This document shows positions 18,319-47,266 of a stretch of 64,000 bases of DNA, piece after piece. Under the pieces are notes generated by a model that was not told where the DNA came from, ran no database searches, and saw only the letters and a program-made list of their open reading frames with translations. The position numbers were made by a program, and so were the translations under genes. The stretch is from Gammaproteobacteria bacterium (GTDB lineage Bacteria > Pseudomonadota > Gammaproteobacteria > Eutrophobiales > Eutrophobiaceae). The DNA lies in NCBI GenBank assembly GCA_965116495.1, contig OZ220696.1:3136001-3200000 (forward strand), given 5' to 3'. How positions within the stretch are numbered: position 1 is the first letter of the stretch; every line of letters starts with the position of its first letter.

Positions 18319-18924
18319 ATGAAAACACTGACGTCCAGACAATTGCAGGTGCTTGAATTTATACAGGACAGCATCAGGGTCGCCAATATGCCGCCTACCA
18401 TCGCCGAGATTACCGGAGCCATGGGATTTGGTTCGACCAATGCGACCCGGGGGCATTTACAGGCGCTGGAACGCAAAGGAGCCATAGAGCTGATCCCCAA
18501 CTCATCCCGGGGGATACGCCTGGTACAAGCCGGCGCGTTTGAGCCCGGTCTCCCCCTGGTGGGTCGGGTTGCCGCCGGTCGTCCCCTGCTGGCTGAAGAA
18601 AATATCGAGGATCATCGCCCGGTTGATCCATCGTTTTTTTCTCCCCGTGCGGATTACCTGTTGCGTGTACGGGGTGAGAGTATGCGGGATGCCGGGATAC
18701 TGGATGGGGATTTGCTTGCGGTGCACCGTAGTCCCACTGCGGATAACGGCCAAATCGTGGTGGCGCGGCTGCAGGATGAGGTAACGGTCAAACGGCTGCG
18801 CCGGACCGGACAGGTGGTTTACCTGGAAGCGGAAAACCCCGGCTTTCCTGCCATTGAGGTGGACCTGGAACAGGAAACACTGGCCCTTGAGGGTATCGCC
18901 GTCGGCGTGGTACGCACCCTGTAG
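18319..18924 (+). CDS. lexA: SOS repressor LexA
   Basis: [22 protein letters not shown], cleavage site VAAG, catalytic Ser (GESM) and Lys (TVKR). Confidence 0.96.
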
Positions 18925-18933
18925 CGCATAACC

Positions 18934-19554: not shown

Positions 19555-19557
19555 GAT

Positions 19558-21087
19558 ATGCCCCGGCCACTTTCTGCCCCTTCTTTCCTGGACTACCAGG
19601 AACAAGAGGCATGTAACAAAACTGAAACCAGGACCGGGCAACAAGCTCTGTGGCTTGCTGTTTATCTGCCCAAACTGGCCCTGGAAGTTGTCGCTGCCGA
19701 TCAGTCTGATGAGGTTTCGGCCGTCGTTGAGGAAAAAAAAGGCAGAAAACTCGTCCATACCGCGTCCGGTTTCGCAGAACGGATGGGTATCAGCGCGGGC
19801 ATGGCTCTGAGCGCGGCCTACGCCTGTTGCCCCGGCCTGAAAGTTCACCGGATCAACGAAATCGCCCGGGAGGAACGACTGGATGCGCTGGCAGCCTGGG
19901 CCTTGCAGTTCAGCGCCGTGGTCAGTTTGCATCCACCCTGCTCGTTGCTGCTGGAGGCGGGGGGAAGCATCAACTATTTTGGCGGCATCGCCGCGATCCG
20001 GGATACCATCGCCCGGGAACTGACCGAACGCTGGAAACACGTTTTTTACCAGGCAACGACCCCCACGCCCACAGCCAGCCTGATGCTGGCCCGGGCCGGA
20101 TGCAACCTGGTAGTCGAGCGCGGCGCAGATTTGCGCTCGGTCCTGGGGCCCTTGAGTATTGAGGTCCTGCCCCTGGATGACAAGCGCAAACAACGACTGA
20201 ATAAAACCGGCGTGCGTATCCTGCGCGACCTCTGGCGTTTGCCTTCAGACGGGCTGGCGCGACGTTTTGGAACAGACCTGGTTACCCACCTGGACCAGGC
20301 CCTGGGAAAGCTGCCTGAACCCTTGAATGCTTATCGGATACCCCCCCGATTTTCCGACACCCGGGAATGTTCGTTTGACATCGATGAGCAACAGGCGCTT
20401 CTTCCCGTCGTTCATGGGCTTGTGACCGGCTTATGCGATTTCCTGCAGAAACAGGACTTGTACACCATGGATTACCAGGTATATTTTTATCACCGGCAGG
20501 ACCCGGTAACGGTGCTCCATATCGGCTTGCGCCGGCCAATACGCCAACCCGGTTATTTGATGATGCTGGTGGAGACTCAGCTCGGCAGGACAAAGCTGGA
20601 CGCGGCCGTCGTCAGGGTAACGCTGACTGCCGAGCGGTTTTACAGCGTTGCCCCCCGGACCCGTTGTTTATTTCCCGGCAGTGGGCTTGAGCAGGAAGCT
20701 CAGGATATTGCGCCACTCCTTGAACAATTATCCACTCGTCTCGGCGCCGCTGCGTTGGAAGGCATCGCAACCCACGCGGACCATCGACCGGAATACGCCT
20801 GCCGGACTGGCGTGCCGGCCGCGGTCGGGCCGGTGCCCCCGGGCAACCGGCGCCCCCTGTGGTTATTGCCGAAACCCAGGGAATTGCTGAGCAAGGACGA
20901 CGGAATTTACTACAGGAGCCGCGTCCATTCCCTTGTGGGGCCGGAGCGCATCGAAACGGGCTGGTGGGACAACTACGACATACGCCGGGATTATTACGTG
21001 GGTGTCGATGACATCGCCGGACGCGTGTGGATTTACCACGACCTGACAACCGGGCAAAAATGGTATTTGCATGGATTGTTCGGTTGA
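19558..21087 (+). CDS. imuB: Inactive Y-family polymerase ImuB
   Basis: WLAVYLP, GMALSAA, LARRFG, DHRPE, RPLWLL, GPERIETGWW, RDYY, WYLHGLFG. Confidence 0.92.
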   Translation: MPRPLSAPSFLDYQEQEACNKTETRTGQQALWLAVYLPKLALEVVAADQSDEVSAVVEEKKGRKLVHTASGFAERMGISAGMALSAAYACCPGLKVHRINEIAREERLDALAAWALQFSAVVSLHPPCSLLLEAGGSINYFGGIAAIRDTIARELTERWKHVFYQATTPTPTASLMLARAGCNLVVERGADLRSVLGPLSIEVLPLDDKRKQRLNKTGVRILRDLWRLPSDGLARRFGTDLVTHLDQALGKLPEPLNAYRIPPRFSDTRECSFDIDEQQALLPVVHGLVTGLCDFLQKQDLYTMDYQVYFYHRQDPVTVLHIGLRRPIRQPGYLMMLVETQLGRTKLDAAVVRVTLTAERFYSVAPRTRCLFPGSGLEQEAQDIAPLLEQLSTRLGAAALEGIATHADHRPEYACRTGVPAAVGPVPPGNRRPLWLLPKPRELLSKDDGIYYRSRVHSLVGPERIETGWWDNYDIRRDYYVGVDDIAGRVWIYHDLTTGQKWYLHGLFG

Positions 21088-24000
21088 ACGCGCCTGTTTG
21101 CCGCCTTATGCGGAATTACACTGCATCAGCAACTTTACGTTTCTGCGGGGCGCTTCCCATCCGGAAGAACTGGTGGCCCGGGCAAAAGCCCTGGGTTACC
21201 GCGCCATCGCCATTACCGACGAATGCAGCTTATCCGGAATCGTCCGCGCCCATGTCGCGGCCGGGATAGAAGGTATCGACCTGCTTGTCGGCAGCGAGTT
21301 TCGATTACAGGAAGGGTGGCGCTTTCTATTGCTGGCCACCGACCGGGGCAGCTACGGCAGACTCGCGCACCTCATCACCCTGGCTCGCCGGCAGGCAAAA
21401 AAAGGGGAGTATTTTATCGACCGGAACCTGGTCCAGGACAACTGCCCCGCCGGATGCCTGGCCATCTGGCTGCCTTGCTTTAACCGGGGGGAGATCGAAA
21501 CAAACGGCTTGCGCTGGCTGGCCGGTCTTTTCCCCGGAGCCCTGTGGATAGCGGTAGAGTCGTTGCTTGACGGCAACGACAGGGAACAACTGCACCGCTT
21601 ACAGGAAATCAGCGCAGGTTTTTCTATTCCCTTATGCGCCTGTGGCGATGCACACGTACATGAATATAAGCGCCGGGTAGTACAGGATACCTTGACGGCC
21701 ATCCGTCTCGGCAAACCCATCAGTGAACTGGGTTACGGGGTTTATTCCAACGGCGAGCGACACCTGCGCTCGCGCCGGCGTCTGGCGCAGCTTTATCCGC
21801 GCCCCTTGCTGGAAGAGACCGTAAGGATCGCCGAGCGCTGCCGTTTTTCCCTGGATGAATTACGTTATGAGTATCCATCGGAACTGGTTCCGGAATACCA
21901 TACTCCCCACTCATGGCTGCGGCGGCTTACGGAACAGGGTATGCAAACACGCTGGCCCGGGGGCGCACCGGAAAAAGTGCGGGCATTGGTTGAACATGAG
22001 CTGGCCCTGGTGCATGAGTTCAGCTATGAGCATTATTTTTTAACGGTTCACGATATTGTGAAATTTGCCCGCAGCAAGGGCATCCTGTGCCAGGGGCGCG
22101 GTTCCGCCGCCAACTCCGCCACCTGTTATTGTCTGGGCATAACAGAAGTCAACCCCGACGCCATGGACCTGCTGTTTGAGCGCTTTATTTCCAGGGAACG
22201 CAATGAACCGCCGGATATTGACGTGGACTTTGAACATGAACGTCGTGAAGAGGTCATTGCCTATATCTATGAAAAATACGGGCGCGAGCGCGCCGCCCTG
22301 GCGGCAACCGTCATCACCTACAGGCCGAAAAGCGCGCTGCGGGACGTGGGCAAAGCCCTGGGAATGAGTACGGACCAGTTGGAGCGTCTGGCCGCATGCG
22401 TCTCCGGACGCTATGGAAATACCCTGGAAACAGCGCAGTTGGATGGCTTTCCGGCGGACAGCCCGCTTATGAGAAGACTGGTTTACCTGGTCAATAACCT
22501 GATCGGCTTCCCGCGACATTTATCCCAGCATGTGGGTGGCTTTGTCATCAGTCAGGGCCTGCTCTCCCACTTGGTGCCTGTTGAAAACGCAGCCATGCCT
22601 GGGCGCACCGTCATTCAATGGGAAAAACGCGACCTGGAGGCGCTGGGCCTGCTCAAAGTGGACGTGCTCTCCCTGGGGATGCTCACCGCCATCCGCAAGG
22701 CCCTGGCGCTGGTCAGTCAATACCGGAATGAACCGCTGACCCTGGATAAGGTACCCACGGAAGATCCCGCGGTTTATAAAATGATGCAGAAGGCCGATAC
22801 CGTGGGTGTCTTTCAAATCGAATCACGGGCGCAGATGAGTATGCTGCCACGTCTCAAACCGGAAAATTATTACGACCTGGTGATACAGATCGCCATTATT
22901 CGGCCCGGCCCCATACAGGGGGACATGGTGCATCCTTATTTAAGAAGACGGCGCGGCGAGGAGCCGGTCAGCTATCCCGGCAAGGCGGTGGAAAAAGTGT
23001 TGAAGCGCACCCTGGGCGTTCCCATCTTTCAGGAACAGGTGATGCAACTGGCGATGGTCGCTGCGGGTTTCAGCGCGGGGGAAGCGGATCAACTGCGGCG
23101 TTGCATGGCTGCATGGCACCGCAAGGGCGGACTGGAGCCGTTTGAAAAAAAACTGCTGAGCGGCATGAAAGCGCGGGGTTACCCGGACAGTTTTGCGCGC
23201 CAGGTCTTCAACCAGATAAAAGGATTTGGCGAATACGGCTTTCCCGAATCCCATTCCGCCAGCTTTGCCCTGCTTGCTTACGTGTCGTCCTGGTTGAAGT
23301 ATTATCACCCGGCTGCTTTCACCTGCGCCCTGCTGAACAGCCAGCCCCTCGGGTTCTACCGGCCGGCGCAACTGGTGCAGGACGCCCGGCGCCATGGCGT
23401 GACCGTCCTGCCCGTTGACGTGAACGACAGCGATTATGATTGTACCCTGGAGGGCGCCCTGGGGCAGGCCGGAACGCCCGGAACCCTGCGCCTGGGTTTG
23501 CGCCTGGTCAAGGGTTTGTCCCGGGCCGGCGCCCACACCCTGGCGCTTGAGCGAAAACGGGGCAGGTATGTCAGTGCACAGGATATTGCGGCGCGTACAG
23601 GACTGGCTCAAGCGGACCTGACGAGTCTGGCAGACGCCGATGCCTTGAACGGCATCGGCAAAGACCGTCACCGCGCCTGCTGGGAGGTCCTGGACCCGGG
23701 GCCGGGCGCGCCCCTGTTCTCCACGCCTGACGAGGAAGAAACCGACCTTATGCTGCCCAAGCCTCGGGAAGGGGAAAATATCCTGGCGGATTACGCCAGT
23801 ATCGGCTTTACCTTGCGCCGCCACCCGCTGGCCCTGTTACGCGGACGCCTGGACGAACGGGGCGTTACCACGTCAACAGGACTCGGGGAATTGGCCGACA
23901 ACGCCTGGGCCCGGGCCGCGGGTATCGTCACCAGCCGCCAGCGACCCGCCACCTCTTCCGGGGTCATGTTTTTCACCCTGGAGGATGAAACCGGGTTTAT

Positions 24001-34672: not shown

Positions 34673-35596
34673 ATGAATTACTCGGATAGACCAAGCGGGA
34701 AGTTACGCTGTTTTATGGTATTTGCCGCGCTGGTATTTGTTACTGCTTGTAAGACGACACCCACCGTTCGTTCGTCAGGCCCCCCGGGCTCACCCGGCTC
34801 GCCGGGGTCGCCGGGCACGTCCGGACCATCCATACAGGTCGAAGCACCGGGCATGCCGGGAGTACCTGGAGTGCCCGGAGTACCGGGAGCGCCCGCGCCC
34901 GGCACAGGTAGCGCGCAGGGGGCACCGGAGCCAGGCGCGATCACCGTACCCGTTCAGCAACCCGGGTCAGCGTCCGGTAAAACCGGCGGCGTTCCTTCCA
35001 CGGCCCAATCCGGAAAGAATCAGAAGCCGGCCAGGTCTGGCGCCACTGCGGGAACCGGACGGGAAAAGACTGAAGATGAAATCCTGGCCGAAGCCTTGCA
35101 GGAACTCAATAAAAGGCGTGAACCGGAGCAACAGGGTGAAGGTGTCGCCGGGCAAATGCCCCAGGCGAGCGCGGCTGGCCCGGCAAGGACTGATGACGAG
35201 AAGAAACAGGCACTCGGTAATGAGCTGGAACAGGGTCTTGCGGAATTCGACCAACTGATGCTGAGTGAGCAGCAGGCTATCAATGAACAAGCCGACCAGG
35301 AAGGGTACGGCGGTTTCCTTGAAGGCGATGAATTTCCCGCAGAGGGCGACCCTGCACAGGGCACAGGGGAGGAGCCATTGCAAACGGCGATGGTCGATCC
35401 TGATCCTGTGTCCATCAAGGGCGAGGGGAATATCCCGACCAGAAGCCACAGCCGGATCCCTCCGGACCTGGCCGATGCCAAGGGAGACGATATCATCGCC
35501 CGCCAACTCCGCGAAGCCGCCATGAAAGAACAGGATCCCGAGTTAAGGGAAAAACTCTGGGATGAATATCGTAAATACAAGCGAGAGTTAAGATGA
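34673..35596 (+). CDS. Pro/Gly-rich putative lipoprotein with helical C-terminal domain
   Basis: Lipobox VTAC; (G-X-P)n runs; C-terminus DDIIARQLREAAMKEQDPELREKLWDEYRKYK; overlaps the next gene (ATGA). Confidence 0.75.
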   Translation: MNYSDRPSGKLRCFMVFAALVFVTACKTTPTVRSSGPPGSPGSPGSPGTSGPSIQVEAPGMPGVPGVPGVPGAPAPGTGSAQGAPEPGAITVPVQQPGSASGKTGGVPSTAQSGKNQKPARSGATAGTGREKTEDEILAEALQELNKRREPEQQGEGVAGQMPQASAAGPARTDDEKKQALGNELEQGLAEFDQLMLSEQQAINEQADQEGYGGFLEGDEFPAEGDPAQGTGEEPLQTAMVDPDPVSIKGEGNIPTRSHSRIPPDLADAKGDDIIARQLREAAMKEQDPELREKLWDEYRKYKRELR

Positions 35597-36786
35597 ATCC
35601 AAGTTATGTAAAACTGGTTACGGCAGTTGTTTCACTGTGTTTCGGCCTGGTCGGCTGTAACACGACCACGGTAAAGTCGGCCAGCTATGAGACGGTGGTG
35701 CTGGAATCGGAAGTTACACCGGAAGAATTATTGCTGGACGTGGGCGTTGGTATTTTCAATCCTGGAACTGACGCCATAAGCGTTGAGGAAGAAGGTGTGT
35801 TTCCTAAAATACGCGCAGCCGAGGCGCGTTTTATGCCGTACAAGCTGATGGAAACCCTGCAGCATACGGGTAACTGGGGCGTAGTGCGGGTGATTCCGGA
35901 CCGGTTGAGCGAAATGGATGTCTGGGTAGATGGTGAAATCCTGAAATCGGACGGTGAAAACCTCTGGTTGCAGGTAACGGTGGAAGACTCTACAGGGAAG
36001 CGTTGGTTCAGTAAAAAGTATACGGGATTGGCCGGCAAGTACTCGTATGATGGTACGACGGCAGGCCGCAGCGAACCGTTCCAGAAGGTTTATAACCAGG
36101 TCGCAAACGATATGCTGGCTTATCGCAACCAGTTCAATGCCGCGGAAATCAGGAATATAAGAACCGTTGCCGAACTGAAGTTCGCCAGGGACTTTTCTGC
36201 GGAAGTGTTCCATGATCACCTGGGCGTCAATGAAAAGGGGCGTTATTTCGTTAAACGCCTGCCCGCGGACGGAGACCCGGGTATGCAGCAGATTCGTCAG
36301 ATCCGGGAACGTGATTATATATTCGTCGACACGCTGCAGCAGTATTATACCTCGTTCGTCAACCAGATGGAGGATCCGTACCGGGAGTGGCGCGAGGCCT
36401 TCTACCTGGAAAGTCAGGCATTGAAGGAGGTCAAGTCCGAATCGAATGCCCGTCTGATCGGTGGCGCCCTGGCAGTACTGGCCGGGATACTGGCCCAGGG
36501 GGTTGACAGTCGTACTGCGCGGACAGCCGGCTGGGTAGGCATAGGCGCCGGCGCTGCCGCAATTCAAAGCGGCCTGCAGAAGCGTGAAGAAGCCAAAATT
36601 CACGTTGAAGCCCTGGAAGAAGTTTCAGCGTCACTCGATTCTGAGATTGAACCACACTCCATAGACCTGGAGGACCGCACGGTCACTCTTTCCGGTTCGG
36701 TAAACGAGCAGTACGGTCAATGGCGCCGCATATTGAAAGAAATTCATGCAACGGAAACGGGGTCAGCCACTGACACCGGCAAATGA
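35593..36786 (+). CDS. Putative lipoprotein with glycine-zipper hairpin
   Basis: Lipobox LVGC; C-terminal GGALAVLAGILAQG...AGWVGIGAGAAA hydrophobic Gly-rich pair; translationally coupled on both sides. Confidence 0.78.
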   Translation: MNPSYVKLVTAVVSLCFGLVGCNTTTVKSASYETVVLESEVTPEELLLDVGVGIFNPGTDAISVEEEGVFPKIRAAEARFMPYKLMETLQHTGNWGVVRVIPDRLSEMDVWVDGEILKSDGENLWLQVTVEDSTGKRWFSKKYTGLAGKYSYDGTTAGRSEPFQKVYNQVANDMLAYRNQFNAAEIRNIRTVAELKFARDFSAEVFHDHLGVNEKGRYFVKRLPADGDPGMQQIRQIRERDYIFVDTLQQYYTSFVNQMEDPYREWREAFYLESQALKEVKSESNARLIGGALAVLAGILAQGVDSRTARTAGWVGIGAGAAAIQSGLQKREEAKIHVEALEEVSASLDSEIEPHSIDLEDRTVTLSGSVNEQYGQWRRILKEIHATETGSATDTGK

Positions 36787-38348
36787 CAGGAAATAAAGAC
36801 TCCGGTTTTGTTTCCATCAAGCCGGCTGCGGTCGACCTGACTGCTGCTGCACCTGCGCCGGAACAAAAAAAGGGACGTTTCGGCAAACGGCCGTTGTTAT
36901 GGCTGGGAACGGGCGCCGCGTTGCTTATTGCGGCCGTCGTTTTTTTCCTGCTTCCCCATTGGGTCACCCATCCTGGCATCGGTCCCGGCGCGGCGAACAC
37001 CCGGACAGAGCCGGACAAGCCGGGTCAGGTACTACCCGGGGGGAATGCGTCGCAGACTGCAGGGGGTACGGCCGCTGCGGGGGATGCCCCGTGGAGAAAT
37101 GCGCAGCGATTCGCACAGCGCAAGCAGAGCCAGGAGATACTGGAACAGTTGCTTGATACGCAGGCAATCCTGGAAGAGAGGGGAGTGACCGTGTGGGGCA
37201 GGAAGGGTTACGAGCAGGCAATACAGCACGCCAGGTCGGGAGATGCTGAATACAGCCGGCAAAACTTCTCCATGGCCCATGACCATTACGCCCGGGCGTC
37301 TGATATCCTGACCGGGCTGCTGCAAGGTGTGGAGGAATTATTCAGCGATACCATGGAAACCGGCAATGCGGCACTGGCGGCAGGTGATGCCGTTGCGGCG
37401 AGGGAGTCATTCAGCATCGCCCTCGCCATTGATCCCATTGACCGGACTGCCCTGTCGGGAATGGAACGGGCCGGAACATTGACCGAGGTCATGGACCTGA
37501 TCGACAGGGGAGATATGATGTTGCGGGATGGAAAAGCCGAACAGGCCAGGGGGTTGTATCAACAGGCCCTGGAAATTGACGGGCACTCCGGGCGGGCCAG
37601 GCAACAACTGCAACTGGCCGAAAGCAGGATCAGTGAGAACGCATTCAGCGTTGCCATGTCCTCCGGCTTCCGCATGCTGGATGAGGGACGCTACTCACAG
37701 GCCGGGGAAGCGTTTTCCACGGCGCTCAGGATAAAGCCGGGGTCGCGTGATGCCCGTAGCGGGCTTGACCAGGCGAACCACCGTATAACCTCAGGAAAGA
37801 TAAATGCATTACTGAAACAGGCCAAAACCGCGGAGCAGAACGAGGATTGGCAGGGAGCCGTCTCCGCCTATGAAGCAGCACTGAAGCTGGACAACAACCT
37901 GGGAAATGCCCGGGAAGGTCAGCGCCTGGCCACCCTGCGTAAAGAGATACACGATAGACTTGGGCAGGTGCTGTCCCGGCCGGACAGGCTGTTTGACCGG
38001 GGCGCGTTTGATGAGATCGTCAGTTTCCGTGACAAACTCCAGGCGCTGTCCGAGCCCGGTCCTGTCCTGGCCGGCCAGTTAGCCAGGCTCGACCGTTTAC
38101 TGAACCTGGCCGATACACCCGTGCCGGTGCAGTTCAGGTCCGACAATCAGACTCGGGTCACCCTCTACAAGGTCGGTGAACTGGGTTATTTCACCAGTAA
38201 AAACCTGTCACTGCGCCCCGGCCATTACGTGGTGGTCGGACACCGTGACGGGTATCGCGACGTGCGTGTTGAATTTTTTGTTGACCCCGACAAAGTCATG
38301 GAGCCTGTCACGGTCAGCAGTGATGAAAAGATAGCCCTGGGACAATAA
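36783..38348 (+). CDS. Membrane-anchored TPR-repeat protein with C-terminal PEGA-like domain
   Basis: One N-terminal TM helix; TPR units (ALAIDP, YQQALEID, ALRIKP, YEAALKLD); LRPGHYVVVGHRDGY PEGA-like motif. Confidence 0.8.
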   Translation: MTGNKDSGFVSIKPAAVDLTAAAPAPEQKKGRFGKRPLLWLGTGAALLIAAVVFFLLPHWVTHPGIGPGAANTRTEPDKPGQVLPGGNASQTAGGTAAAGDAPWRNAQRFAQRKQSQEILEQLLDTQAILEERGVTVWGRKGYEQAIQHARSGDAEYSRQNFSMAHDHYARASDILTGLLQGVEELFSDTMETGNAALAAGDAVAARESFSIALAIDPIDRTALSGMERAGTLTEVMDLIDRGDMMLRDGKAEQARGLYQQALEIDGHSGRARQQLQLAESRISENAFSVAMSSGFRMLDEGRYSQAGEAFSTALRIKPGSRDARSGLDQANHRITSGKINALLKQAKTAEQNEDWQGAVSAYEAALKLDNNLGNAREGQRLATLRKEIHDRLGQVLSRPDRLFDRGAFDEIVSFRDKLQALSEPGPVLAGQLARLDRLLNLADTPVPVQFRSDNQTRVTLYKVGELGYFTSKNLSLRPGHYVVVGHRDGYRDVRVEFFVDPDKVMEPVTVSSDEKIALGQ

Positions 38349-38378: not shown

Positions 38379-40424
38379 ATGCGGGCTGATCGTATTGAAG
38401 CGGCGAAGTTTGAACCGCTGACGTCAAAAAAATCAACCCGGCCTGTTGCATTCAATGCGCGGCTTTGCCTGGTTATTGCCCTGCTCGCGGTGGGCGCATT
38501 CTGTGCCTGGTTCATGCTGACGGCCAAAGCGGTCTATATTGAAACCGAGCCGTTGAATGCGGATGTCGATATACCGGTCGCGCTCAAGATTAAGCTGGCC
38601 AACCGCTATCTTATCCGCCCCGGTACTTATCGGCTTAACCTGTCGGCGCAGGGCTATACCCCGGTTCGGGAAACACTTGGCGTCAGCGAAGAGGCGTCCC
38701 AGCATTATATTTACCGGCTGGAGAAACTGCCCGGACACCTGCGGGTAGACAGCGGTCCGGTAACCGGCGCGCAGGTGCTTGTCGACGGCAATTCCAGGGG
38801 AGAAACACCTGTTACCCTCAGGGACCTCGCGCCCGGTGAACACCTTGTGGAGATCGTGGCAGAGCGATATTTCCCTTATCGCGAAAGTATCGAGGTGGAA
38901 GGACTCGACCGCGAACAGGCAATCAGCGCTGAGCTGAGGCCCGCGTGGGCGGAAATCAGTTTTACATCAATCCCTGCGGACGCGCAGGTGTTCAGCGCTG
39001 ATGAAATCCTTGGCAGGACGCCGTTGACGGCAGAACTGCTTGAGGGCAGGCATGACATCAGGATCAAGGCAGCCGGCTACAAGGTCTGGCAGGATGCGAT
39101 TGCCGTGGTCGCGGGCAAGTCACAGTCCATAGCCGATATCAAACTGGAAGCGGCGGATGCAAGCTTGTTCCTGGTCTCCCAGCCTGCCCGGGCCAATGCT
39201 ACCGTCAACGGCAATTACCTGGGATTGACGCCGCTGGAAGTACCCCTGACACCGGGAGAGACCACCGTTGTGCGGTTGTTCAAACAGGGTTACAAACCGG
39301 CTGCCAGGTCATTGACGGCGAAATCAGGCGAACAGAAGAGACTGTCCGTTACCCTGGAACCTGAACTGGTCCCCGTAGTTATCAGGGTGGAACCTGATGA
39401 CGCATCCGTGTACGTTGACGGCGCGCTGGTCGGGACCGCTGACCGCACTATCCGGTTATCGACCAGCAAGCACAGGATAGAGGTCCGCAAGCAGGGATAC
39501 GTGGATTACAAGACCACCCTGACGCCTCTTGTCGGGGTTGAACATGAACTGAACGTACAGCTGAAGACCCTCAGGCAGGCGAAACTGGAAACTGTCAAAC
39601 CGGTTATCAAGGCGCCGTCAGGCCAGGTCCTGAAACTGTTTTACCCGGGTACGTTTACCATGGGAGCGTCGCGCCGGGAACCGGGACGCAGGGCCAATGA
39701 GACCATGCATGATGTAGAGCTCACGCGGCCCTTTTACCTGGGGTTGAAGGAAGTGACAAACCAGGAGTACAGGTTGTTTGATAAGGGGTTTTCGTCCGGT
39801 AACGTGCGCGGCAACAGTCTTAACGGAGACAACCAGCCGGTGGCCGGCATCACCTGGGAACAGGCGGCAAGCTATTGCAACTGGTTGAGCAAAGAGGCCT
39901 CGCTGACGCCGTTCTATATTGAAAAAGAAGGCAGGGTTACAGGGTTTGACAAAACAGCCGACGGTTACCGTTTGCCGACAGAGGCGGAATGGGCCTGGGC
40001 GGCACGTGTGACCGGTACGGGTGAGATACTCAAGTTCCCCTGGGGCGCGCAACTGCCGCCCGCGAAAAACAGCGGAAATTTTGCCGACCGCAAGGCGGCG
40101 GCCCTGTTCGGCAGGATCATCGGCAACTATGATGATGGTTATGTCGTCAGTGCGCCCGTGGGCAGCTTCACGCCCAACGGCAAGGGGTTGTTCGACCTGG
40201 GCGGCAACGTTGCAGAATGGGTCAACGACTTCTACAACATTGTGGTCAGCGCCGGTAAAAAAGCCGAGGTAGACCCTATGGGGCCCGCAAGCGGGGAGTT
40301 CCACGTTATCCGCGGGTCAAGCTGGGCTCACGGCGCCATTACCGAACTGCGCCTGTCGTTCAGGGACTACGGGGGTAAATCCAGAGAAGATGTAGGTTTC
40401 AGGATTGCCCGCTATGCGTACTGA
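38379..40424 (+). CDS. Membrane-anchored multi-PEGA protein with FGE-sulfatase (SUMF1/GldK-like) domain
   Basis: TM helix, about five PEGA repeats (PGTY..QGY, PGEH, GRH..AGY, KQGY), then FTMG, EVTNQEY, RLPTEAEW, GLFDLGGNVAEW, RGSSW, VGFRIA; no catalytic Cys pair. Confidence 0.88.
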   Translation: MRADRIEAAKFEPLTSKKSTRPVAFNARLCLVIALLAVGAFCAWFMLTAKAVYIETEPLNADVDIPVALKIKLANRYLIRPGTYRLNLSAQGYTPVRETLGVSEEASQHYIYRLEKLPGHLRVDSGPVTGAQVLVDGNSRGETPVTLRDLAPGEHLVEIVAERYFPYRESIEVEGLDREQAISAELRPAWAEISFTSIPADAQVFSADEILGRTPLTAELLEGRHDIRIKAAGYKVWQDAIAVVAGKSQSIADIKLEAADASLFLVSQPARANATVNGNYLGLTPLEVPLTPGETTVVRLFKQGYKPAARSLTAKSGEQKRLSVTLEPELVPVVIRVEPDDASVYVDGALVGTADRTIRLSTSKHRIEVRKQGYVDYKTTLTPLVGVEHELNVQLKTLRQAKLETVKPVIKAPSGQVLKLFYPGTFTMGASRREPGRRANETMHDVELTRPFYLGLKEVTNQEYRLFDKGFSSGNVRGNSLNGDNQPVAGITWEQAASYCNWLSKEASLTPFYIEKEGRVTGFDKTADGYRLPTEAEWAWAARVTGTGEILKFPWGAQLPPAKNSGNFADRKAAALFGRIIGNYDDGYVVSAPVGSFTPNGKGLFDLGGNVAEWVNDFYNIVVSAGKKAEVDPMGPASGEFHVIRGSSWAHGAITELRLSFRDYGGKSREDVGFRIARYAY

Positions 40425-40610: not shown

Positions 40611-40928
40611 ATGGGACAGATGATTTCGGACGTTACTAAGCACTCCATTGAGTTGGAGCGGCTTTGCATCCTTCACCATGTGAAGCGGCTCGACCTGTTT
40701 GGTTCAGCCGTAACCGGTCAGTACAGCCCGGAGGAAAGCGATCTGGACTTCGTGGTGGAGTTCCAACCACTGCCTGCTGGCGGGTATGCCGATACTTATT
40801 TCGGTTTACTGGAGCATTTGGAACGGCTGTTTGGATGCCCTGTAGACCTGATAGTCGGGTCGGCTATCAAGAATCCCTATTTTCTGCAATCGGTTGAGAA
40901 AACGAGAACTCCAGTCTATGAGACTTGA
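40611..40928 (+). CDS. Minimal nucleotidyltransferase (MNT) antitoxin
   Basis: LDLFGSAV...SDLDFVV (GS-x10-DxD), YFGL, VDL, IKNPYF. Confidence 0.88.
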   Translation: MGQMISDVTKHSIELERLCILHHVKRLDLFGSAVTGQYSPEESDLDFVVEFQPLPAGGYADTYFGLLEHLERLFGCPVDLIVGSAIKNPYFLQSVEKTRTPVYET

Positions 40929-41082
40929 GACCCGAAAATACTTATACGATATTCAGCGCGCCGTTGAATTGCTGGGGGAATTTACTGCCGGAAAGACGCT
41001 CGTAGATTACGAGGCCGACGCCATGCTACGCGCAGCAGTTGAACGCGAGTTCGACCAATCTTTAGAAAGGTGTTCAGTCTGA
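40918..41082 (+). pseudogene. Truncated HEPN/DUF86 toxin
   Basis: KYLYDI..A...F..GKT..DY..D.MLRAAVER matches the DUF86 N-terminus; ends after 54 aa without the R-x4-H motif. Confidence 0.75.
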
Positions 41083-41294
41083 TGTTGAGAGTGATTTTTT
41101 TTCTCGCGATGTTTGCTGCTGTTACGATAAAAGCACAAGAGACTCCTGTTACGACGGAGCCCGAAGCCGGGCAGGTTAAAGGGACAAGGGAAAGACCGGT
41201 AGAACAGGATGCGGTTGAAGACGCTCCAGACATCATTGAATCGACCGAGGAGTTGTCCGAAGACTATCCCGCAGATTTTCCAGTAGATATATAG
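41082..41294 (+). CDS. Small exported acidic protein ending in DFPVDI
   Basis: Signal peptide (..IKA-Q), acidic low-complexity body, 7 bp upstream of the MotA/TolQ gene. Confidence 0.65.
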   Translation: MLRVIFFLAMFAAVTIKAQETPVTTEPEAGQVKGTRERPVEQDAVEDAPDIIESTEELSEDYPADFPVDI

Positions 41295-41301: not shown

Positions 41302-42099
41302 ATGAAATTTAACCAGACAACAGATTTTTTCTACCAGTTGTTTACGCTGATTGCCGCAATTATTATCGTTCATGCGCTGTATATTGCGGTGATCCGGCCG
41401 AATGCGGAAGCCATCCTGGAGGAACAGCGTATCCAGCAGCAGGCCGGTGAAAACTACGAAGTGAAGCGTTCCGTTTTTATTGTCATTAAGGATTTTGAAC
41501 AGGAAGCCTGTTTTATTCTGGCCCTCTGGGTCGTAGCCATTATCGGCCTGAAAGCCAGGATAGCGCTTTCCGAAAGACGCCTGCTGAGCCGTTCCCTGCT
41601 GGAGGTGGCCGCCGGCGCCACCATACTGCCCGAGGATTCCCGGCAATATATCAGGCCGCTACAGGCCTTGGCGGAGGATGAACGGGAATCCCTGTTGCCG
41701 CGTGCGCTACAGGCGGCATTGCAGCGGTTTGGTTCTACCGCGGACATACAGGATGTCTCATCCGCTATCCGGGAAATCTGCGAGACGGAATCCGATAGGC
41801 TGGATTCCGAACTTTCGATGATCAGGTATGTCATCTGGGCCATTCCTTCTATCGGCTTTATCGGCACCGTGCGCGGTATCGGCGAAGCCCTCGGTCAGGC
41901 CCATCGGGCGGTAGAAGGCGATATCGTGGGGGTGACCGTCAGTCTGGGTGTCGCCTTCAACTCCACCTTCATCGCACTGATCATCAGCATTTTCATCATG
42001 TTCCTGATGCACCAGTTACAGCTTATGCAGGAAAGACTGGTGCTGGATACACAGCATTACTGCGACGTAAACCTGTTGCGGCACTTGCAGGTCAGGTAA
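41302..42099 (+). CDS. MotA/TolQ/ExbB proton-channel family protein
   Basis: Four TM helices; IPSIGFIGTVRGI and LGVAFNSTFIAL signatures. Confidence 0.92.
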   Translation: MKFNQTTDFFYQLFTLIAAIIIVHALYIAVIRPNAEAILEEQRIQQQAGENYEVKRSVFIVIKDFEQEACFILALWVVAIIGLKARIALSERRLLSRSLLEVAAGATILPEDSRQYIRPLQALAEDERESLLPRALQAALQRFGSTADIQDVSSAIREICETESDRLDSELSMIRYVIWAIPSIGFIGTVRGIGEALGQAHRAVEGDIVGVTVSLGVAFNSTFIALIISIFIMFLMHQLQLMQERLVLDTQHYCDVNLLRHLQVR

Positions 42100-42150
42100 A
42101 TGATGGTGTGCAATACAGGTTGGGGCAGCCGGCCATCGCCAGGAGCATGA

Positions 42151-43467
42151 ATGACTGATGCTGTCATAGAACTGAACGACTGCGAGGTAAGCGTAATCCG
42201 GTCCGGAAACGTCGTGGTGAGCAGTCCCGGCATTGCCGTGCTCAAGGAAGACCGGATCGAACTGGGACAGGGGGCCTTGCAAGCCACACATATCGACCCG
42301 AGGAATACCTTCAGCCGGTTCTGGAGCAATCTCAACCAGGATAACTTCAAGCACCGGACGAAACTGGCCAGGCATAATGCCGACCTGGCTTATGCCCACT
42401 TGTTATCCTTGCACGAGATGGCGGACGGCGTGGATAGGGTAGTACTCGCCGTGCCCGGCAGTTATACCACAGAGCAATTGGCGCTGTTGCTGGGCTTGAT
42501 GGACGCCTCCCCCTTTACTTCAGCAGGCCTGGTCGATAGCGCTATCGCGGCGGCGGCAGCGACGGCCGGCGCCGGGAGCTATAACCACCTGGATGTCCAC
42601 CTGCATAACACTGTCATTACCTCACTGGAAGTCTCCGGCACAGTGATGCGCACGGCAGTCAAAGTAATCAATGATGTCGGTCTGTTGGATATTCAAGACA
42701 AATGCGTGAGCCACGTTGCTGACCTGTTTATTCAACAATCCCGGTTTGATCCGCTGCATCACGCGGTAACGGAACAGGCCCTTTGCAACCGTATGGCGCA
42801 ATGCCTGCATGAACTGGCAGGTGAAGCTGACACGATGGTCGATATCGAGTTTGAGAATGCCCATTACCAGGCCCGGGTGAATCGGGAGCGCCTGGTGGAA
42901 GCGCTACGACCGTTGTACAGTAAAATCAGCGCTGCCGTCGACGCCAACCAGCTTGCGCTGGTGCACAAACGTCTTGCCGGTCTGCCCGCGTTCACCGACC
43001 ACCTGTCTGAGGCAAGCAGGCACATCGAGGTCCTGGATGAACACGCCGTGTTCGCCGGCTGCATGGGCTATATGCAGGAAGACAAAGCTGCGGATGAAGA
43101 GGTTTACTTCATCACGCAACTCAAGGCCGCTGCGGAACCCGCAATAAGTTACGCAACTACAGCAAGGCTGGAACAAAAGCCTGAAGTGGGGGCGACCCAC
43201 GTCCTGGTGGATGCTGAGGCCCACCCACTCGGGCAGGCTCCGCTGTACCTGTCCGCACAGGGAGGTTTAACGCAGTCCGGGAGTCAGGACACTCTTTGTT
43301 CCCTGACACTTAAGGAATCAGTTGCAACTCTTGCTCTGTCAGGCGACGCCGAAATTGTTCTCGTCAACGGCCGGGCCGTGAACGGCAACGTCGAACTCAA
43401 GCCGGGCGACGTAATCGGTTTTGCCGGCTCAACACACAAATTCAGCCTTATCAGGGTCCTGGAATGA
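42151..43467 (+). CDS. Cytoplasmic protein with degenerate Hsp70/actin-like fold and C-terminal FHA-like domain
   Basis: SSPGIAVL...LGQGA, VVLAVPGSYTTEQ...GLVDSAIAAA...HLDV parallels the DnaK nucleotide-binding-domain layout; C-terminal VLVNGRAV..ELKPGDVIGF. Confidence 0.65.
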   Translation: MTDAVIELNDCEVSVIRSGNVVVSSPGIAVLKEDRIELGQGALQATHIDPRNTFSRFWSNLNQDNFKHRTKLARHNADLAYAHLLSLHEMADGVDRVVLAVPGSYTTEQLALLLGLMDASPFTSAGLVDSAIAAAAATAGAGSYNHLDVHLHNTVITSLEVSGTVMRTAVKVINDVGLLDIQDKCVSHVADLFIQQSRFDPLHHAVTEQALCNRMAQCLHELAGEADTMVDIEFENAHYQARVNRERLVEALRPLYSKISAAVDANQLALVHKRLAGLPAFTDHLSEASRHIEVLDEHAVFAGCMGYMQEDKAADEEVYFITQLKAAAEPAISYATTARLEQKPEVGATHVLVDAEAHPLGQAPLYLSAQGGLTQSGSQDTLCSLTLKESVATLALSGDAEIVLVNGRAVNGNVELKPGDVIGFAGSTHKFSLIRVLE

Positions 43468-43496
43468 CAGGCGCCGGCAGACGTCGCAGGGGTTAC

Positions 43497-43599
43497 CGGG
43501 GACAGGTTTCAAACATGCCCCTGCATGTTGTAAGCAGGGGTCTGTCCTCTGTCACGGGGCTGTCAGATTTCAGCGGGGACAGATTTCAATTCTGTCCCC
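43497..43599. repeat. Family B repeat cluster (GGGGACAG...CTGTCC)
   Basis: GGGGACAGGTTT...GGGGTCTGTCC unit (43498-43553) plus hairpin at 43575-43599. Confidence 0.8.
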
Positions 43600-43632
43600 T
43601 GTTACAGCGGTCGACTTTCCTCCGGATGAGAA

Positions 43633-44718
43633 ATGCGGACTAAAAGACTGCTTACACCCTTCAGCCTGTCGTTCCTGGACATCATGTCCTGCGGCTTCGG
43701 CTCGGTGGTACTGTTGTTTCTCATCATCAAGCATAACGTTGATACCAACGTTCCCGTCCCCGTCGATACCCGCGACGAGACTGCCGAGGTCATGCTGCTG
43801 GAGGAGGAAATCCTGGAAGGTAAAAAAAACCTCGCCAGGACCCGCAACACCATCTCGGACATCGATGAGCAACTGGTGGTGGCGCAAGGTATGGCCCGGC
43901 GCATTATGGAAAAAATCGAGGAAACCCGGTCCCTGGCGGAGCAACTGTCGGAAACGACCGATTCTGTGGAACTGGACCGGCTGAAGCTCAATATCAAGAA
44001 GCTGGAGGAGCAGAAAAAGCAGTTACAGGAGGAGATAAAAGAGACAGGAGATGATGTCCGGCGCCTGGTCGGAGAAGGGAACCGCGAGTACCTAACCGGA
44101 CTCAGGCTGGGTGGCAAGCGTATTTTAATTCTGCTGGATGTCTCCGGCAGCATGCTGGACGATACTATCGTCAATATCATCCGCATCCGTAACATGCGCG
44201 ATGGGATCAAACGCAACGCGCCTAAATGGGTGCAGACCTTGCGGATGGTGGATTGGCTGACGGCCGGGTTTCCCAGGGACAGCCAATACCAGATCTACGT
44301 GTTCAACACCGAAACGCGCTCGGTGTTGCCGGGGCTGGCCGGGAAATGGCTGGGCGTCAGCGACAAGGCGCAATTGAATTCGATCATTGAAGCGCTAGGA
44401 AAGATCGTGCCGGAGGGCGGCACCAACCTGGAACGGGCCTTTGCCGCCATCGGCAAACTGCGGCCCCGGCCCGACAATGTGTACTTGATTACGGACGGTC
44501 TGCCCACTCAGGGCTCCAGGACGATCCGGGGCCCTTACATTACCGGTAAACAGCGGCTGAACCTGTTTGCCAGGGCAATCAATCAACTTCCCGCAAACGT
44601 TCCGGTTAACGTAATCCTGGCGCCGCTGGAAGGAGACCCGGAGGCGGCCTACGCCTACTGGCGCCTGGCCATGAATACCGACGGTTCGTTCCTGGTGCCC
44701 AGCGAGGACTGGCCATGA
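43633..44718 (+). CDS. ExbD/MotB-like TM helix + coiled coil + VWA domain protein 1
   Basis: FSLSFLDIMSCGFGSVVLLFLII; coiled coil; MIDAS LLDVSGSM, GGTN, ITDG. Confidence 0.85.
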   Translation: MRTKRLLTPFSLSFLDIMSCGFGSVVLLFLIIKHNVDTNVPVPVDTRDETAEVMLLEEEILEGKKNLARTRNTISDIDEQLVVAQGMARRIMEKIEETRSLAEQLSETTDSVELDRLKLNIKKLEEQKKQLQEEIKETGDDVRRLVGEGNREYLTGLRLGGKRILILLDVSGSMLDDTIVNIIRIRNMRDGIKRNAPKWVQTLRMVDWLTAGFPRDSQYQIYVFNTETRSVLPGLAGKWLGVSDKAQLNSIIEALGKIVPEGGTNLERAFAAIGKLRPRPDNVYLITDGLPTQGSRTIRGPYITGKQRLNLFARAINQLPANVPVNVILAPLEGDPEAAYAYWRLAMNTDGSFLVPSEDWP

Positions 44719-45710
44719 GAAAAAAACGGCGGGAAAACGAGGCGTTCAGTATCTCATTCCTGGACGTCATCACCTGCGGTTTCGGCGCAATCATACTGTT
44801 GCTCATGATCGCCAAAACCGGGGACAGTCCCATACTGGAGACCGCGGTCGAATCCATGCACGGTATAGTGCGGGAATTGCAGGTCCAGTTATTTGAAATT
44901 CGCGGTGAGGCCAAAATCCTGGACCGGGAACTGGACGCCAGGCATGAACAGCGGTCCGAATGGGAGGAGCGGGTTGCCCGCCTCGAGGCGGAACTGGCAA
45001 CGGAGGAAATACGCTATAACAACGTGCGTGACGACTCTGCCGTAGGCATCATCATCAAGGACGAATTTGAGTTGGCCCTGCAGCAACTGACGGAAGAAAT
45101 GAAGCGCCTGTTGTCGCAAAGAGACCGCGTACGCACCGACCTGGTAGGCGGCATACCGGTCGATAGCGAATATGTCATTTTTGTCCTCGACACCTCGGGC
45201 AGCATGGTCAACTACCATTGGGAAAACATGATCAACCAGTTGATTACGACCCTTGACGTCTATCCCCGCCTTAAGGGCATACAGATCATGAGTGACATGG
45301 GCGAATACCTGTTTTCCCAGTACCGGCGTACCTGGATTCCCGATACCGAAGGCAGGCGCAAGGTCATCATCAGGACTTTGCGCAGTTGGAGAACCTTCAG
45401 CAACAGCAGCCCGGTGGAAGGCATCACCAAGGCGATCCGCAGCTTTTATGACCCCGGAAAGAAGATCAGCATCTATGTGTACGGAGACGAGTTTACCGGA
45501 CCTTCAATCAGGCAGGTCCTGGATCAGGTGGAGCGCATCAACCCGAAAGACAAGGACGGCCAAACCATGGTGCGCATCCATGCGGTCGGCTTTCCGGTTC
45601 CTTCCAACGCCGGTGAACATTTCCTGATAACCAATAAACGTTATGCTTCACTCATGCGCCAACTGACCCACAAGAACGGCGGCGCGTACGTCGGCCTGAA
45701 TGAACAGTGA
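44715..45710 (+). CDS. ExbD/MotB-like TM helix + coiled coil + VWA domain protein 2
   Basis: FSISFLDVITCGFGAIILLLMI; coiled coil; MIDAS VLDTSGSM, YGDE, IHAVGF; ATGA overlap with its paralog. Confidence 0.85.
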   Translation: MRKKRRENEAFSISFLDVITCGFGAIILLLMIAKTGDSPILETAVESMHGIVRELQVQLFEIRGEAKILDRELDARHEQRSEWEERVARLEAELATEEIRYNNVRDDSAVGIIIKDEFELALQQLTEEMKRLLSQRDRVRTDLVGGIPVDSEYVIFVLDTSGSMVNYHWENMINQLITTLDVYPRLKGIQIMSDMGEYLFSQYRRTWIPDTEGRRKVIIRTLRSWRTFSNSSPVEGITKAIRSFYDPGKKISIYVYGDEFTGPSIRQVLDQVERINPKDKDGQTMVRIHAVGFPVPSNAGEHFLITNKRYASLMRQLTHKNGGAYVGLNEQ

Positions 45711-45761
45711 ACGCCTCACTACGAAGTTTGTGGACTACCACCGAGTTAAGGACAATAATAT

Positions 45762-46427
45762 ATGTATTCGAGATACGAAGCGCAGGATAGGGCCAGAATG
45801 ACTCACAGACTCATTTATTCAGCCGGCTTGTTGTTGATCCTGACTGCCTGCGAGCAGTCCATGTCCCTCAGGGTGGAGAGTGAAATACCCATCCCGGTGA
45901 TCGACCGGATGCCGGTAAAAATGGGGGTAATCTTCCAGGACGAATTGCGCAACTACGTCTCTGAGGAAAATTCCGACGAACGGCCCAACTGGAAGATCGA
46001 GAGCGGTTCTTCCCACGTCGCCTTGTTCCAGCAATTACTTTCCTCCATGTTCGAGGAGACAAAAGAAGTCGCCGGTGCCGGCGCCGATACTACAGTCGAT
46101 GCGGTATTGGCGCCCACCGTCGCCGAAATGCAATTTGCCCTGCCCGCGGAAACCAAAACGGATTTTTATGAAGCCTGGGTTAAATATAATATGGAGCTGT
46201 TTAACCAGGACGGCAGTCGAATAGCAAACTGGTCGGTAACAGGGTACGGAAAATCCTCCACCGAATTCATGAAAAGCCGTGATAAGGGACTCAACGCGGC
46301 GGTAAACCAGGCCCTGCGGGATGCAGGCGCCAAATTTGCGCTCGGTTTCTCCAGGATAGAGGAGATCAGCGTCTGGGTGGAGCAGAAGAACAAAATATCC
46401 GCAGATTACGCAGATGAACGCAGGTAA
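45762..46427 (+). CDS. Putative lipoprotein
   Basis: Lipobox LTAC (start at 45762 or 45798); the last 9 codons come from a palindromic repeat. Confidence 0.78.
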   Translation: MYSRYEAQDRARMTHRLIYSAGLLLILTACEQSMSLRVESEIPIPVIDRMPVKMGVIFQDELRNYVSEENSDERPNWKIESGSSHVALFQQLLSSMFEETKEVAGAGADTTVDAVLAPTVAEMQFALPAETKTDFYEAWVKYNMELFNQDGSRIANWSVTGYGKSSTEFMKSRDKGLNAAVNQALRDAGAKFALGFSRIEEISVWVEQKNKISADYADERR

Positions 46428-46544
46428 GTTATGATATTTATTCGGAGGTACAGCATAAAAAATCATTACTGCCATCAGCGGTCACCTCAATCACCTTTGA
46501 AACAATAAGTTTTTATCTGCGTTCATCTGCGTAATCTGCAGATA
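46396..46544. repeat. Inverted repeat element, family D (ATCCGCAGATTACGCAGATGAACGCAG)
   Basis: 32-bp arms at 46396-46427 and 46513-46544, two mismatches, with an AT-rich spacer. Confidence 0.85.
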
Positions 46545-46597
46545 AAACATCTATAATCTTTGGATGTAATATAAGCCTTGGTGAGTAGCGTGTGATC

Positions 46598-47266
46598 ATG
46601 AAAATCCTGTTAGCTATCACGTTGTTAATCGGTTTGGGCCTGTTTGCCGGGTGCAAGAGCACCACTGTGATTGACGAGTACAGGGAGACTCCCGAGGCAG
46701 GTATCAACCAGGGTGAGGCCATAGTGGTGCTGGGGCGGCGCCACAGTTCCGGCTACGAGACAGAGGATGATTTCATAAGTTGTGTGGGTAGGTCATTGGG
46801 ACAGGGACAGTCCGAGATCAACGTGATTCCGGAAAAGGACTTCGTAGACAGCATGTATCCGTACTTTGAAACCAGTACCGCGCCCATGGATGTAAGAAAC
46901 CTGGGTTCGCTGGCAAAAATTCCTGCTATCGCCACAAAATTCAATGATTTCAACCTGCGCTATTTCGTCTGGATCGACGGTGCCACGGAAAGGACGGATT
47001 CCTCGGGCTCGGTGTCCTGTGCCGTAGGACCGGGTGGCGGCGGCTGTTTCGGGTTTGCCTACTGGAAGGATGAAGCAAATTATGAGGCCAGCATCTGGGA
47101 TTTCAAGCAACTGGCCCTGTCCGGCAAGATCAACGCCGAAACCAAGGGAACCTCATACATGCCGGCGATAATCATCCCGGTCCCCATGCTGGCGCGGGTC
47201 CAGGAAAATGCCTGCAAATCCCTGGCCAACCAGATCAGGACTTTCTTCTCGCATCAACCCGGCTGA
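46598..47266 (+). CDS. Putative lipoprotein with Cys-bounded glycine hairpin
   Basis: Lipobox FAGC; SCAVGPGGGGCFG; C-terminal PAIIIPVP. Confidence 0.8.
   Translation: MKILLAITLLIGLGLFAGCKSTTVIDEYRETPEAGINQGEAIVVLGRRHSSGYETEDDFISCVGRSLGQGQSEINVIPEKDFVDSMYPYFETSTAPMDVRNLGSLAKIPAIATKFNDFNLRYFVWIDGATERTDSSGSVSCAVGPGGGGCFGFAYWKDEANYEASIWDFKQLALSGKINAETKGTSYMPAIIIPVPMLARVQENACKSLANQIRTFFSHQPG

Follow-up and report, generated by a model that had tools for sequence, protein, structure and literature searches.

Can two proteins with VWA heads take the place of the ordinary B subunits in a motor of the MotA/TolQ/ExbB type? The question is raised by a stretch of 64,000 nucleotides from a gammaproteobacterium (contig OZ220696.1 of assembly GCA_965116495.1, positions 3,136,001 to 3,200,000, forward strand), referred to here as the window, in which the paralogous genes VWA1 and VWA2 lie in one operon with the A-subunit gene A265. 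A sequence-only reading of the window had proposed that the pair are B-type subunits of this A subunit. That proposal is supported by a conserved membrane aspartate, by a charge bias around the membrane helix, by conserved threonines in A265, by failure to find an ExbD or TolR gene at the related loci, and by the separation of the pair into two old paralogue lineages. Judged from these features, VWA1 and VWA2 very probably form the trans-pore dimer of an A265 pentamer. The three genes, in window coordinates, are as follows.

41302-42099, plus strand: A265, 265 residues, A subunit of the MotA/TolQ/ExbB family, likely with four transmembrane (TM) helices.
43633-44718, plus strand: VWA1, 361 residues, with Asp16 (codon 43678-43680), a coiled coil, and a VWA head.
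44715-45710, plus strand: VWA2, 331 residues, paralogue of VWA1, with Asp17 (codon 44763-44765), a coiled coil, and a VWA head.

The VWA pair and its A subunit

The start of VWA2 overlaps the stop of VWA1. The N-termini read MRTKRLL..FSLSFLDIMSCGFG in VWA1 and MRKKRR..FSISFLDVITCGFG in VWA2, and a single hydrophobic stretch (residues 14-32 of VWA1, 15-33 of VWA2), following the basic N-terminus, contains the motif F-S-x-S-F-L-D-x-x-x-C-G-F-G. There follows a stalk of about 90 residues (48-136 in VWA1, 44-133 in VWA2) that has a Pro/Gly content of 2-3% and would span ~13 nm if helical. Its hydrophobic periodicity is heptad-like, at 3.55 in VWA1 (reached by 13 of 500 shuffles) and 3.5 in VWA2 (0 of 500). 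The head of VWA1 has the full set of residues of a metal ion-dependent adhesion site (MIDAS), D169-x-S171-x-S173, T264, and D288; the corresponding VWA2 residues are D159-x-S161-x-S163, S231, and D258, with Ser at the Thr site. Both heads are therefore predicted, from these residues, to bind metal. The two proteins are paralogous over their full length (hhalign 99.8%, 317 columns, 18% identity). The anatomy first read from the letters alone, a paralogous pair with a basic start, a single TM segment bearing the F-S-x-S-F-L-D motif, a coiled coil, and DxSxS, was thus confirmed by open reading frame (ORF) map, hydropathy, periodicity, and profile alignment.

The Pfam VWA scores of the two window proteins lie under the curated cut-offs (E 2e-5 and 9e-3), and VWA_2 is matched by 61 of 64 VWA1 relatives at E<=0.05. 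The ExbD/TolR/MotB-type models PF02472 and PF13677 match neither window protein, nor do they occur among the 25 commonest families of the 64 VWA1 relatives. Matches of the VWA1 and VWA2 profiles in the PDB were to coiled coils only, including ATP synthase b (E 0.01-0.03), and were taken as chance.

Conservation was followed across 80 genome loci, retained out of 99 confirmed, from which we built alignments of 64 VWA1 and 61 VWA2 rows, window included and partial or near-identical rows dropped. The membrane Asp, on whose invariance the sequence-only reading had been staked beforehand, is kept in 64 of 64 VWA1 and 60 of 61 VWA2 rows. Among 120 distant VWA1 homologues listed, all 119 that include the N-terminus have it as well, and so do 118 of 120 VWA2-like representatives of 50%-identity clusters with a TM window, among 150 matches listed. 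The Cys one turn beyond the Asp (residue 20 in VWA1, 21 in VWA2) is conserved in 63 of 64 and 61 of 61 rows, and in 118 of 120 representatives; it could face the partner helix. No conserved His of the SHLS type was found within the VWA helix columns. Lys and Arg residues are more numerous before the helix than after it in 64 of 64 VWA1 and 59 of 61 VWA2 rows. The basic flank of a membrane helix stays cytoplasmic (the positive-inside rule), and the heads are therefore predicted to be periplasmic, in agreement with the earlier view that they do not face the cytoplasm. In the heads, DxSxS and the last MIDAS Asp are invariant in both alignments, and the third MIDAS site of VWA2 is Ser in all 61 rows. 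The spacing from membrane Asp to MIDAS is almost constant, at 149-156 residues in VWA1 and 142-147 in VWA2.

Of the 79 loci for which DNA downstream is available, 78 have VWA2 immediately 3' of VWA1. The system is widespread but patchy: in 401 sampled genomes of the phylum, a full-length match occurs in 11, the window genome included, and a second VWA gene is adjacent in all 11. Four of 15 genome matches in this sample (E ~1e-4, single, stalk only) were discarded as coiled-coil noise. A quickly built tree of 55 rows, made up of one row in three from both alignments and 12 from distant loci, separates the VWA1 and VWA2 sequences on one branch with a support of 100 in the Shimodaira-Hasegawa-like approximate likelihood ratio test. 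Because the duplication is old and both copies have been retained, a heterodimer is favored. More widely, 444 clusters at 50% identity match at E<=1e-30, and named relatives include Pseudoalteromonas, Alteromonas, and Idiomarina; these are culturable, so the function is directly testable.

Some individual loci depart from this pattern. VWA2 is split in L020. Seeming exceptions to the Asp in L071 and P0327 proved to be misaligned rows, and L071 is itself rearranged, with a single 473-residue ORF in which VWA2-like sequence stands ahead of the VWA1-like part.

A265 clears the cut-off of the MotA_ExbB model PF01618 (56.9 versus 22.9 bits). Eight residues, P182, G185, G188, T189, G192, N220, S221, and T222, are kept in 69 of 69 rows of its alignment, and T189, T222, and P182 align with the motifs G-L-[FL]-G-T and A-L-x-[AT]-T in the TolQ/ExbB genes of the same genome. 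These Thr positions are predicted to form the ring in the pore, following PMC12204202. Three A265 segments exceed the hydropathy threshold; a fourth helix, around T189, would give four helices arranged as in MotA. Of the 73 loci with enough flank, 68 contain the A gene. A search of the 80 loci for ExbD/TolR, using three queries from the window genome, found none. In all, the genome has six A-type genes. One A/B pair elsewhere carries motifs of the TolQ/TolR type, and each of the three ExbD/TolR genes adjoins an A gene other than A265; no MotB was found in the genome. Since all of its ExbD/TolR genes adjoin other A genes, none occurs at the loci, and MotB was not found, A265 appears to have no ordinary B partner.

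Two qualifications apply to the observation. A 438-residue gene separates the A gene from the VWA pair, and the motif Cys varies to Ser in some distant or short-form operons (see below). At the level of sequence, moreover, homology of the VWA helix to the ExbD/TolR/MotB helix is undetectable, and the likeness consists in the position of one Asp.

The conserved operon

The remaining members of the operon, and an insertion in it, are listed in window order.

34673-35596, plus strand: lp307, predicted lipoprotein (Cys26) whose features are a long Pro/Gly linker and, at the C-terminus, a conserved helical tag.
35593-36786, plus strand: lp397, predicted lipoprotein (Cys22), a core member, with a hydrophobic hairpin rich in glycine around 286-330.
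36783-38348, plus strand: TPR521, a protein that spans the membrane once; its TPR repeats are periplasmic and its beta-rich C-terminus is, by inspection, PEGA-like.
38379-40424, plus strand: PEGA-FGE681, single-pass membrane protein with five PEGA repeats and an FGE/SUMF1 (GldK/PorK-like) head.
40611-40928, plus strand: MNT nucleotidyltransferase (antitoxin) gene, inserted, outside the machine.
40918-41082, plus strand: truncated HEPN/HepT remnant, inserted; its stop overlaps the start of the peptide gene.
41082-41294, plus strand: exported 70-residue protein with a signal peptide, an acidic linker, and a conserved tail.
42151-43467, plus strand: H438, 438 residues, cytoplasmic, with an Hsp70 nucleotide-binding-domain fold and an FHA-like C-terminal domain; accessory.
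45762-46427, plus strand: lp221, predicted lipoprotein (Cys30 invariant); accessory.
46592-47266, plus strand: lp224, predicted lipoprotein with a TolB-N/PelC/CsgG fold and a long beta-hairpin (122-170); accessory.

The operon therefore comprises 11 genes: A, VWA1, VWA2, two membrane-anchored stalks, four lipoproteins, the exported peptide, and the Hsp70-fold/FHA protein. All 11 occur in window order in 37 of 54 full-flank loci, and individual partner genes are present in 44-53 of the 54, as scored with profiles built from the same loci.

The two stalk proteins are each found in 53 of the 54 loci. In TPR521 (the TPR-PEGA protein), a His falls in the TM window in only 1 of 50 rows, and the protein therefore lacks the SHLS motif of TolA/TonB. 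In PEGA-FGE proteins, His is seen in the TM window in 13 of 55 rows, scattered over columns and conserved in none. The catalytic Cys pair after RGGSW was not found, as 0 of 55 PEGA-FGE rows have Cys at 645-660. The resemblance to PorK/GldK falls under the cut-off (GldK score 117 versus 350).

The lipoproteins lp307 and lp397 both occur in 49 of the 54 loci. The tag of lp307 reads DD..ARQLREAA..E.DP.L...LW.EYR, and in short operons lp307 has a signal peptide and retains this tag. For lp397 there was no Pfam or NCBIfam match and no clear PDB sequence match, and the Atlas gave unnamed clusters only. Both lp221 and lp224 occur in 44 loci. YajG, Lipoprotein_16, and LptE-like look-alikes of lp221 are regarded as a lead only. 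The model of lp224 has a predicted local distance difference test score (pLDDT) of 84; Foldseek relates it to PelC (E 2e-6) and CsgG (2.5e-5), and VIA Z scores of 10.4 for TolB, 10.3 for PelC, and 9.5 for the curli complex leave the PelC/CsgG fold tied with monomeric TolB-N. PDB sequence searches with lp221 and lp224 gave nothing clear, and profile comparisons of lp221 with lp224 and of lp397 with lp221 were not significant.

The exported 70-residue protein, present in 52 of the 54 loci, ends in F-x-P-[ST]-E-x-I-S-E-D-x-x-V-x-F-P-V-D-I-stop. Residues D31, F36, P37, D39, and I40 are invariant in 47 rows, so that F-P-x-D-I closes the protein in all of these, and ORFs ending F[PA]xD[IL] are found in 65 of all 80 loci. 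In six of seven short-form loci examined, the signal peptide is followed by about 18 residues that end in FPVDI. In L075 its gene has been relocated together with the A gene. Occurrence of the FPVDI peptide in other motor operons was not supported: the acidic form is clear in 3 of the 401 sampled genomes, all with the operon, and one weak peptide match in that sample (E 0.005) was discarded as noise. The region between the PEGA-FGE and peptide genes is an insertion hot spot, and MNT genes sit at this point in 4 of the 80 loci, each of them a close relative.

H438 was modeled with a pLDDT of 93, and Foldseek matches it to Hsp70/DnaK at E 8e-18. Its FHA-like domain is matched by FHA in 5 of 67 family members. 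Compared with the canonical motifs, its phosphate loops are degenerate, and because their Gly and Thr residues are replaced, H438 is likely a scaffold.

Ten regions fetched from the phylum sample included two of the long form, seven of a short form, and one short contig with A directly before VWA1. The short form consists of lp397, TPR-PEGA, PEGA-FGE, A, VWA1, and VWA2, with lp307 in six. Profiles of H438 and lp224 found nothing in five short-form genomes, in searches made without an internal positive control. Because H438, lp221, and lp224 were not found in short-form operons, they are considered accessory. A cytoplasmic motif, I-x-[PA]-x-x-F-x-P, is present by strict pattern in 40 of 55 PEGA-FGE proteins, and a related motif in 26 of 50 TPR-PEGA proteins; both are swapped for a helical segment in seven of seven short-form operons without H438. 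As a lead, drawn from short forms that represent two lineages only, H438 may bind the cytoplasmic tails of the PEGA-FGE and TPR-PEGA proteins.

VWA1 in six of eight short-form loci (L117, L118, L119, L121, L122, and L123) has no ATG, GTG, or TTG before the membrane helix motif. An in-frame CTG stands where L120 has GTG, and the Asp lies behind this CTG. Automatic gene calling would clip the Asp from such sequences. The CTG start may lower VWA1 expression.

Contigs of the DNA run X1 match almost the whole operon without differences; as X1 may be the source of the assembly, this checks the sequence only. Contigs of X20, a metatranscriptome from a relative, fall on parts of the operon, with no silent control stretch, and so give no evidence of transcription. 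In run X8, labeled a sponge metagenome, one contig spans VWA1 to lp221 (window 43633-46539) at ~95% identity; close relatives thus occur in sponge-labeled samples. Two intergenic places, ~43510-43550 and ~46510-46550, show raised depth and many loose contig ends in X1 and X8, and are likely dispersed repeats.

A second, non-canonical A/B set of genes was seen at G000:C1 ~18,980-21,500 (L130:4985-7504, minus strand), consisting of an L,D-transpeptidase (YkuD), a MotA_ExbB gene (36 bits), a single-pass 'PFTDLLFN' protein, and a 172-residue membrane protein, the last two without a Pfam match. This may be one more unusual 5:2 motor, here with a link to cell-wall cross-linking. At L130:2030-4972 (G000:C1 ~16,030-18,970) is an ORF that by inspection resembles a TonB-dependent receptor, with a very long His/Asp/Glu-rich repeat, and that adjoins a gene like those of CDF-type metal transporters.

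Proposed mechanism and alternatives

The explanation of the whole that we consider probable, and hold with some reserve, is an ion-driven 5:2 motor with a heterodimeric, VWA-headed shaft whose heads work on an outer-membrane lipoprotein assembly. VWA1 and VWA2 would form the central dimer in the predicted A265 pentamer. By analogy with MotAB, ExbBD, and TolQR, ions (H+ or Na+) passing by way of Asp16, Asp17, and the Thr ring would turn the dimer relative to the pentamer, and the coiled-coil shaft would carry two unlike MIDAS heads across the periplasm. In the preferred geometry, as in GldLM, the shaft would bear the torque and the TPR-PEGA and PEGA-FGE stalks would hold the pentamer, with the cytoplasmic Hsp70-fold/FHA protein as the probable link in the long form. 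An acidic residue on a partner encoded in the operon may be what the heads grip; the FPVDI peptide, the lp307 tag, and lp397 are candidates. The heads would act on the lipoprotein assembly most plausibly by gating it, assembling it, or exporting through it. The fixed component, the head ligand, and the output are the least certain parts. It is doubtful that the locus encodes a proteobacterial trans-envelope machine, as yet undescribed, that rebuilds the layout seen in type IX secretion (T9SS) and gliding out of other parts: a MotA-family motor turning a heterodimeric coiled-coil crank, an integrin-style MIDAS clamp on the terminal Asp of the FPVDI peptide or on the lipoprotein tag, export or gating via a PelC/CsgG-like outer-membrane ring, and a pentamer held by GldK-like FGE and TPR stalks locked by a pseudo-Hsp70/FHA adaptor.

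Several observations weigh against the ion-driven motor as set out here. The literature found holds no experiment on any member of the family. The A265 profile retrieves no solved MotA, ExbB, or TolQ structure from the PDB at E<=0.01, A265 scores 25.4 bits against a cut-off of 221 for the TolQ model TIGR02796, and it has Ser where TolQ and ExbB carry the Pro of 'AIP'. Five of 73 loci yielded no A gene, and in L021 and L023 the gene is inverted and lies upstream. When a profile of the VWA helix was searched against 12,939 ORFs from the genome, VWA1 and VWA2 were its sole matches, and the three ExbD/TolR proteins of the genome were missed. The third MIDAS site of VWA1 is variable (T in 34, S in 22, and N in 8 of 64 rows). 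The FGE head stands on an inner-membrane PEGA stalk, unlike the lipoprotein GldK. In one lineage (L047/L048; P0245), Ser replaces the VWA2 Asp, the VWA1 Asp being retained. This lineage would be a natural one-Asp motor, and could show whether both Asp residues are needed.

The main rival keeps the same 5:2 complex and reverses its geometry. The VWA heads, standing in for the peptidoglycan-binding domain of MotB or ZorB, would be an anchor on a fixed periplasmic or outer-membrane partner, and the pentamer would turn, driving the stalks or the Hsp70-fold protein. MotAB, ExbBD, TolQR, and AglRQS are all proposed, in the available part of PMC9389320, to have an anchored dimer and a rotating pentamer, and A265 belongs to that family rather than with GldL; the two single-pass periplasmic stalk proteins are also co-encoded in 53 of 54 full loci. 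We nevertheless think this geometry unlikely, as the stalks lack the His of the TolA/TonB SHLS motif (in PEGA-FGE, no single column holds it) and two unequal heads on a shaft of fixed length would suit a crank better than a simple anchor. If instead VWA1 and VWA2 were alternative B subunits, forming two homodimeric motors with the same pentamer, the full motif and Asp in both proteins would be explained. Their adjacency in 78 of 79 loci and 11 of 11 genomes, the overlapping stop and start, the matched stalk lengths, and the lack of any one-gene lineage among those seen make this highly improbable, and the lineage with Asp in VWA1 alone fits a heterodimer better.

Instead of producing work, the complex could be an ion-conducting envelope sensor, similar to Zorya or to the TagQ/TagR/PpkA/Fha relay of the type VI secretion system (T6SS); it would open its channel when the heads meet ligand or damage, and the FHA protein would signal. 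Domain types of T6SS regulation do occur in the operon, namely an FGE domain that lacks the catalytic Cys pair, a lipoprotein rich in glycine, and a domain like FHA. This possibility is nonetheless quite improbable: of the 10 proteins scanned with PADLOC, 9 had no match and VWA1 matched a coiled coil only (E 5e-4), no kinase or effector gene appears in the conserved order, which is stable and complete in 37 of 54 loci, and the FHA protein was not found in any of the five short-operon genomes searched. The VWA domains might also be integrin-like surface adhesins of a gliding machine, on the model of Myxococcus CglB, which according to PMC9946355 serves a TolQR-like gliding motor as a VWA adhesin. 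The genome is without MotB, and the FGE head resembles GldK/GldJ. CglB, however, is an outer-membrane lipoprotein, while VWA1 and VWA2 are anchored in the inner membrane, and no Glt or Gld family passes its curated cut-off. Because the heads are predicted to be periplasmic, on inner-membrane stalks of ~13 nm, they are not expected to be surface adhesins, and we give this reading a very slight chance. The first reading of the VWA domain as an adhesion domain stands in part: VWA/MIDAS probably replaces the usual periplasmic domain, and surface adhesion is not expected. A role in surface motility through other parts of the operon is conceivable.

Comparison with known motors

The known outputs of MotA-family motors are flagella, TonB uptake, Tol-Pal, Myxococcus gliding, and Zorya. 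A heterodimeric MIDAS-headed shaft, if true, would be a further class of output, and one in which dimer rotation might be easier to probe. From Zorya and related defence systems, with ZorA, ZorB, an OmpA domain, and effectors, the present locus differs in that none of its 10 proteins scanned gave such a match. It resembles the Agl-Glt system of Myxococcus in its TolQ-like A subunit, TPR scaffolds, and use of a VWA domain, and also in having two different B subunits, as in the Agl motor (AglR with AglQ/AglS). In Agl-Glt, however, a separate surface lipoprotein, CglB, carries the VWA domain, and TolR-like proteins serve as B subunits; none of the Glt families gave a match at this locus.

In PMC9389320, GldM is described as a dimeric shaft 18 nm long, with the proposal that it drives a GldKN ring. 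The locus shares with GldLM and GldK/N of Bacteroidota T9SS and gliding a long dimeric shaft that would span the periplasm, an FGE-fold partner, and outer-membrane lipoproteins. Its A subunit, unlike GldL, is of the MotA family and its shaft is a coiled coil with VWA, and the analogy is functional only. With MotAB, ExbBD, and TolQR it has in common a PF01618 A subunit with both Thr residues and single-pass B-type chains, N-terminus inside, with an Asp near the helix start. It differs from them in that a coiled coil and VWA replace the OmpA-like, ExbD, or TolR domain, in having two different B chains, and in having no transducer of the TonB/TolA type.

Our literature search, thin on subscription journals, found only one paper that describes the core, PMC12204202 (Mol Biol Evol 2025;42:msaf138), and no account of the remaining operon genes or of the peptide. 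The paper reports heterologous TPH-vWA pairs beside tolQ homologues, without tolR/exbD, and an AlphaFold 3 model of Idiomarina homologues in a 5:2 arrangement with both Asp residues in the Thr ring; on this purely computational basis, rotation of the dimer in the pentamer is proposed. The window pair is directly homologous to the Idiomarina proteins (E 4e-42 and 2e-55); VWA1 has 29% identity over 299 residues to an I. loihiensis protein (P0189; E 4e-42), and 29% is also its identity to a protein named Idiomarina sp. The likeness to the TPH-vWA motors of PMC12204202, which form the second vWA family of that paper, so far as its text was available, extends to the heterologous vWA pair, the Asp helix, the lack of SHLS, the tolQ-like gene with its Thr ring, and the lack of tolR/exbD. 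The first vWA family of the same source, comprising transducers with an SHLS helix, a Pro-rich linker, and a tolR pair, differs from the window proteins, which have a coiled-coil linker and no tolR. The idea of the core motor has thus been published as a prediction, and meeting it here is less of a surprise. The available text treats a three-gene core only, although its Fig. 4c-d may picture neighbors, whereas the window locus adds eight conserved genes, including that for the Hsp70-fold/FHA protein, and it is these accessory parts, together with the function, that are new ground.

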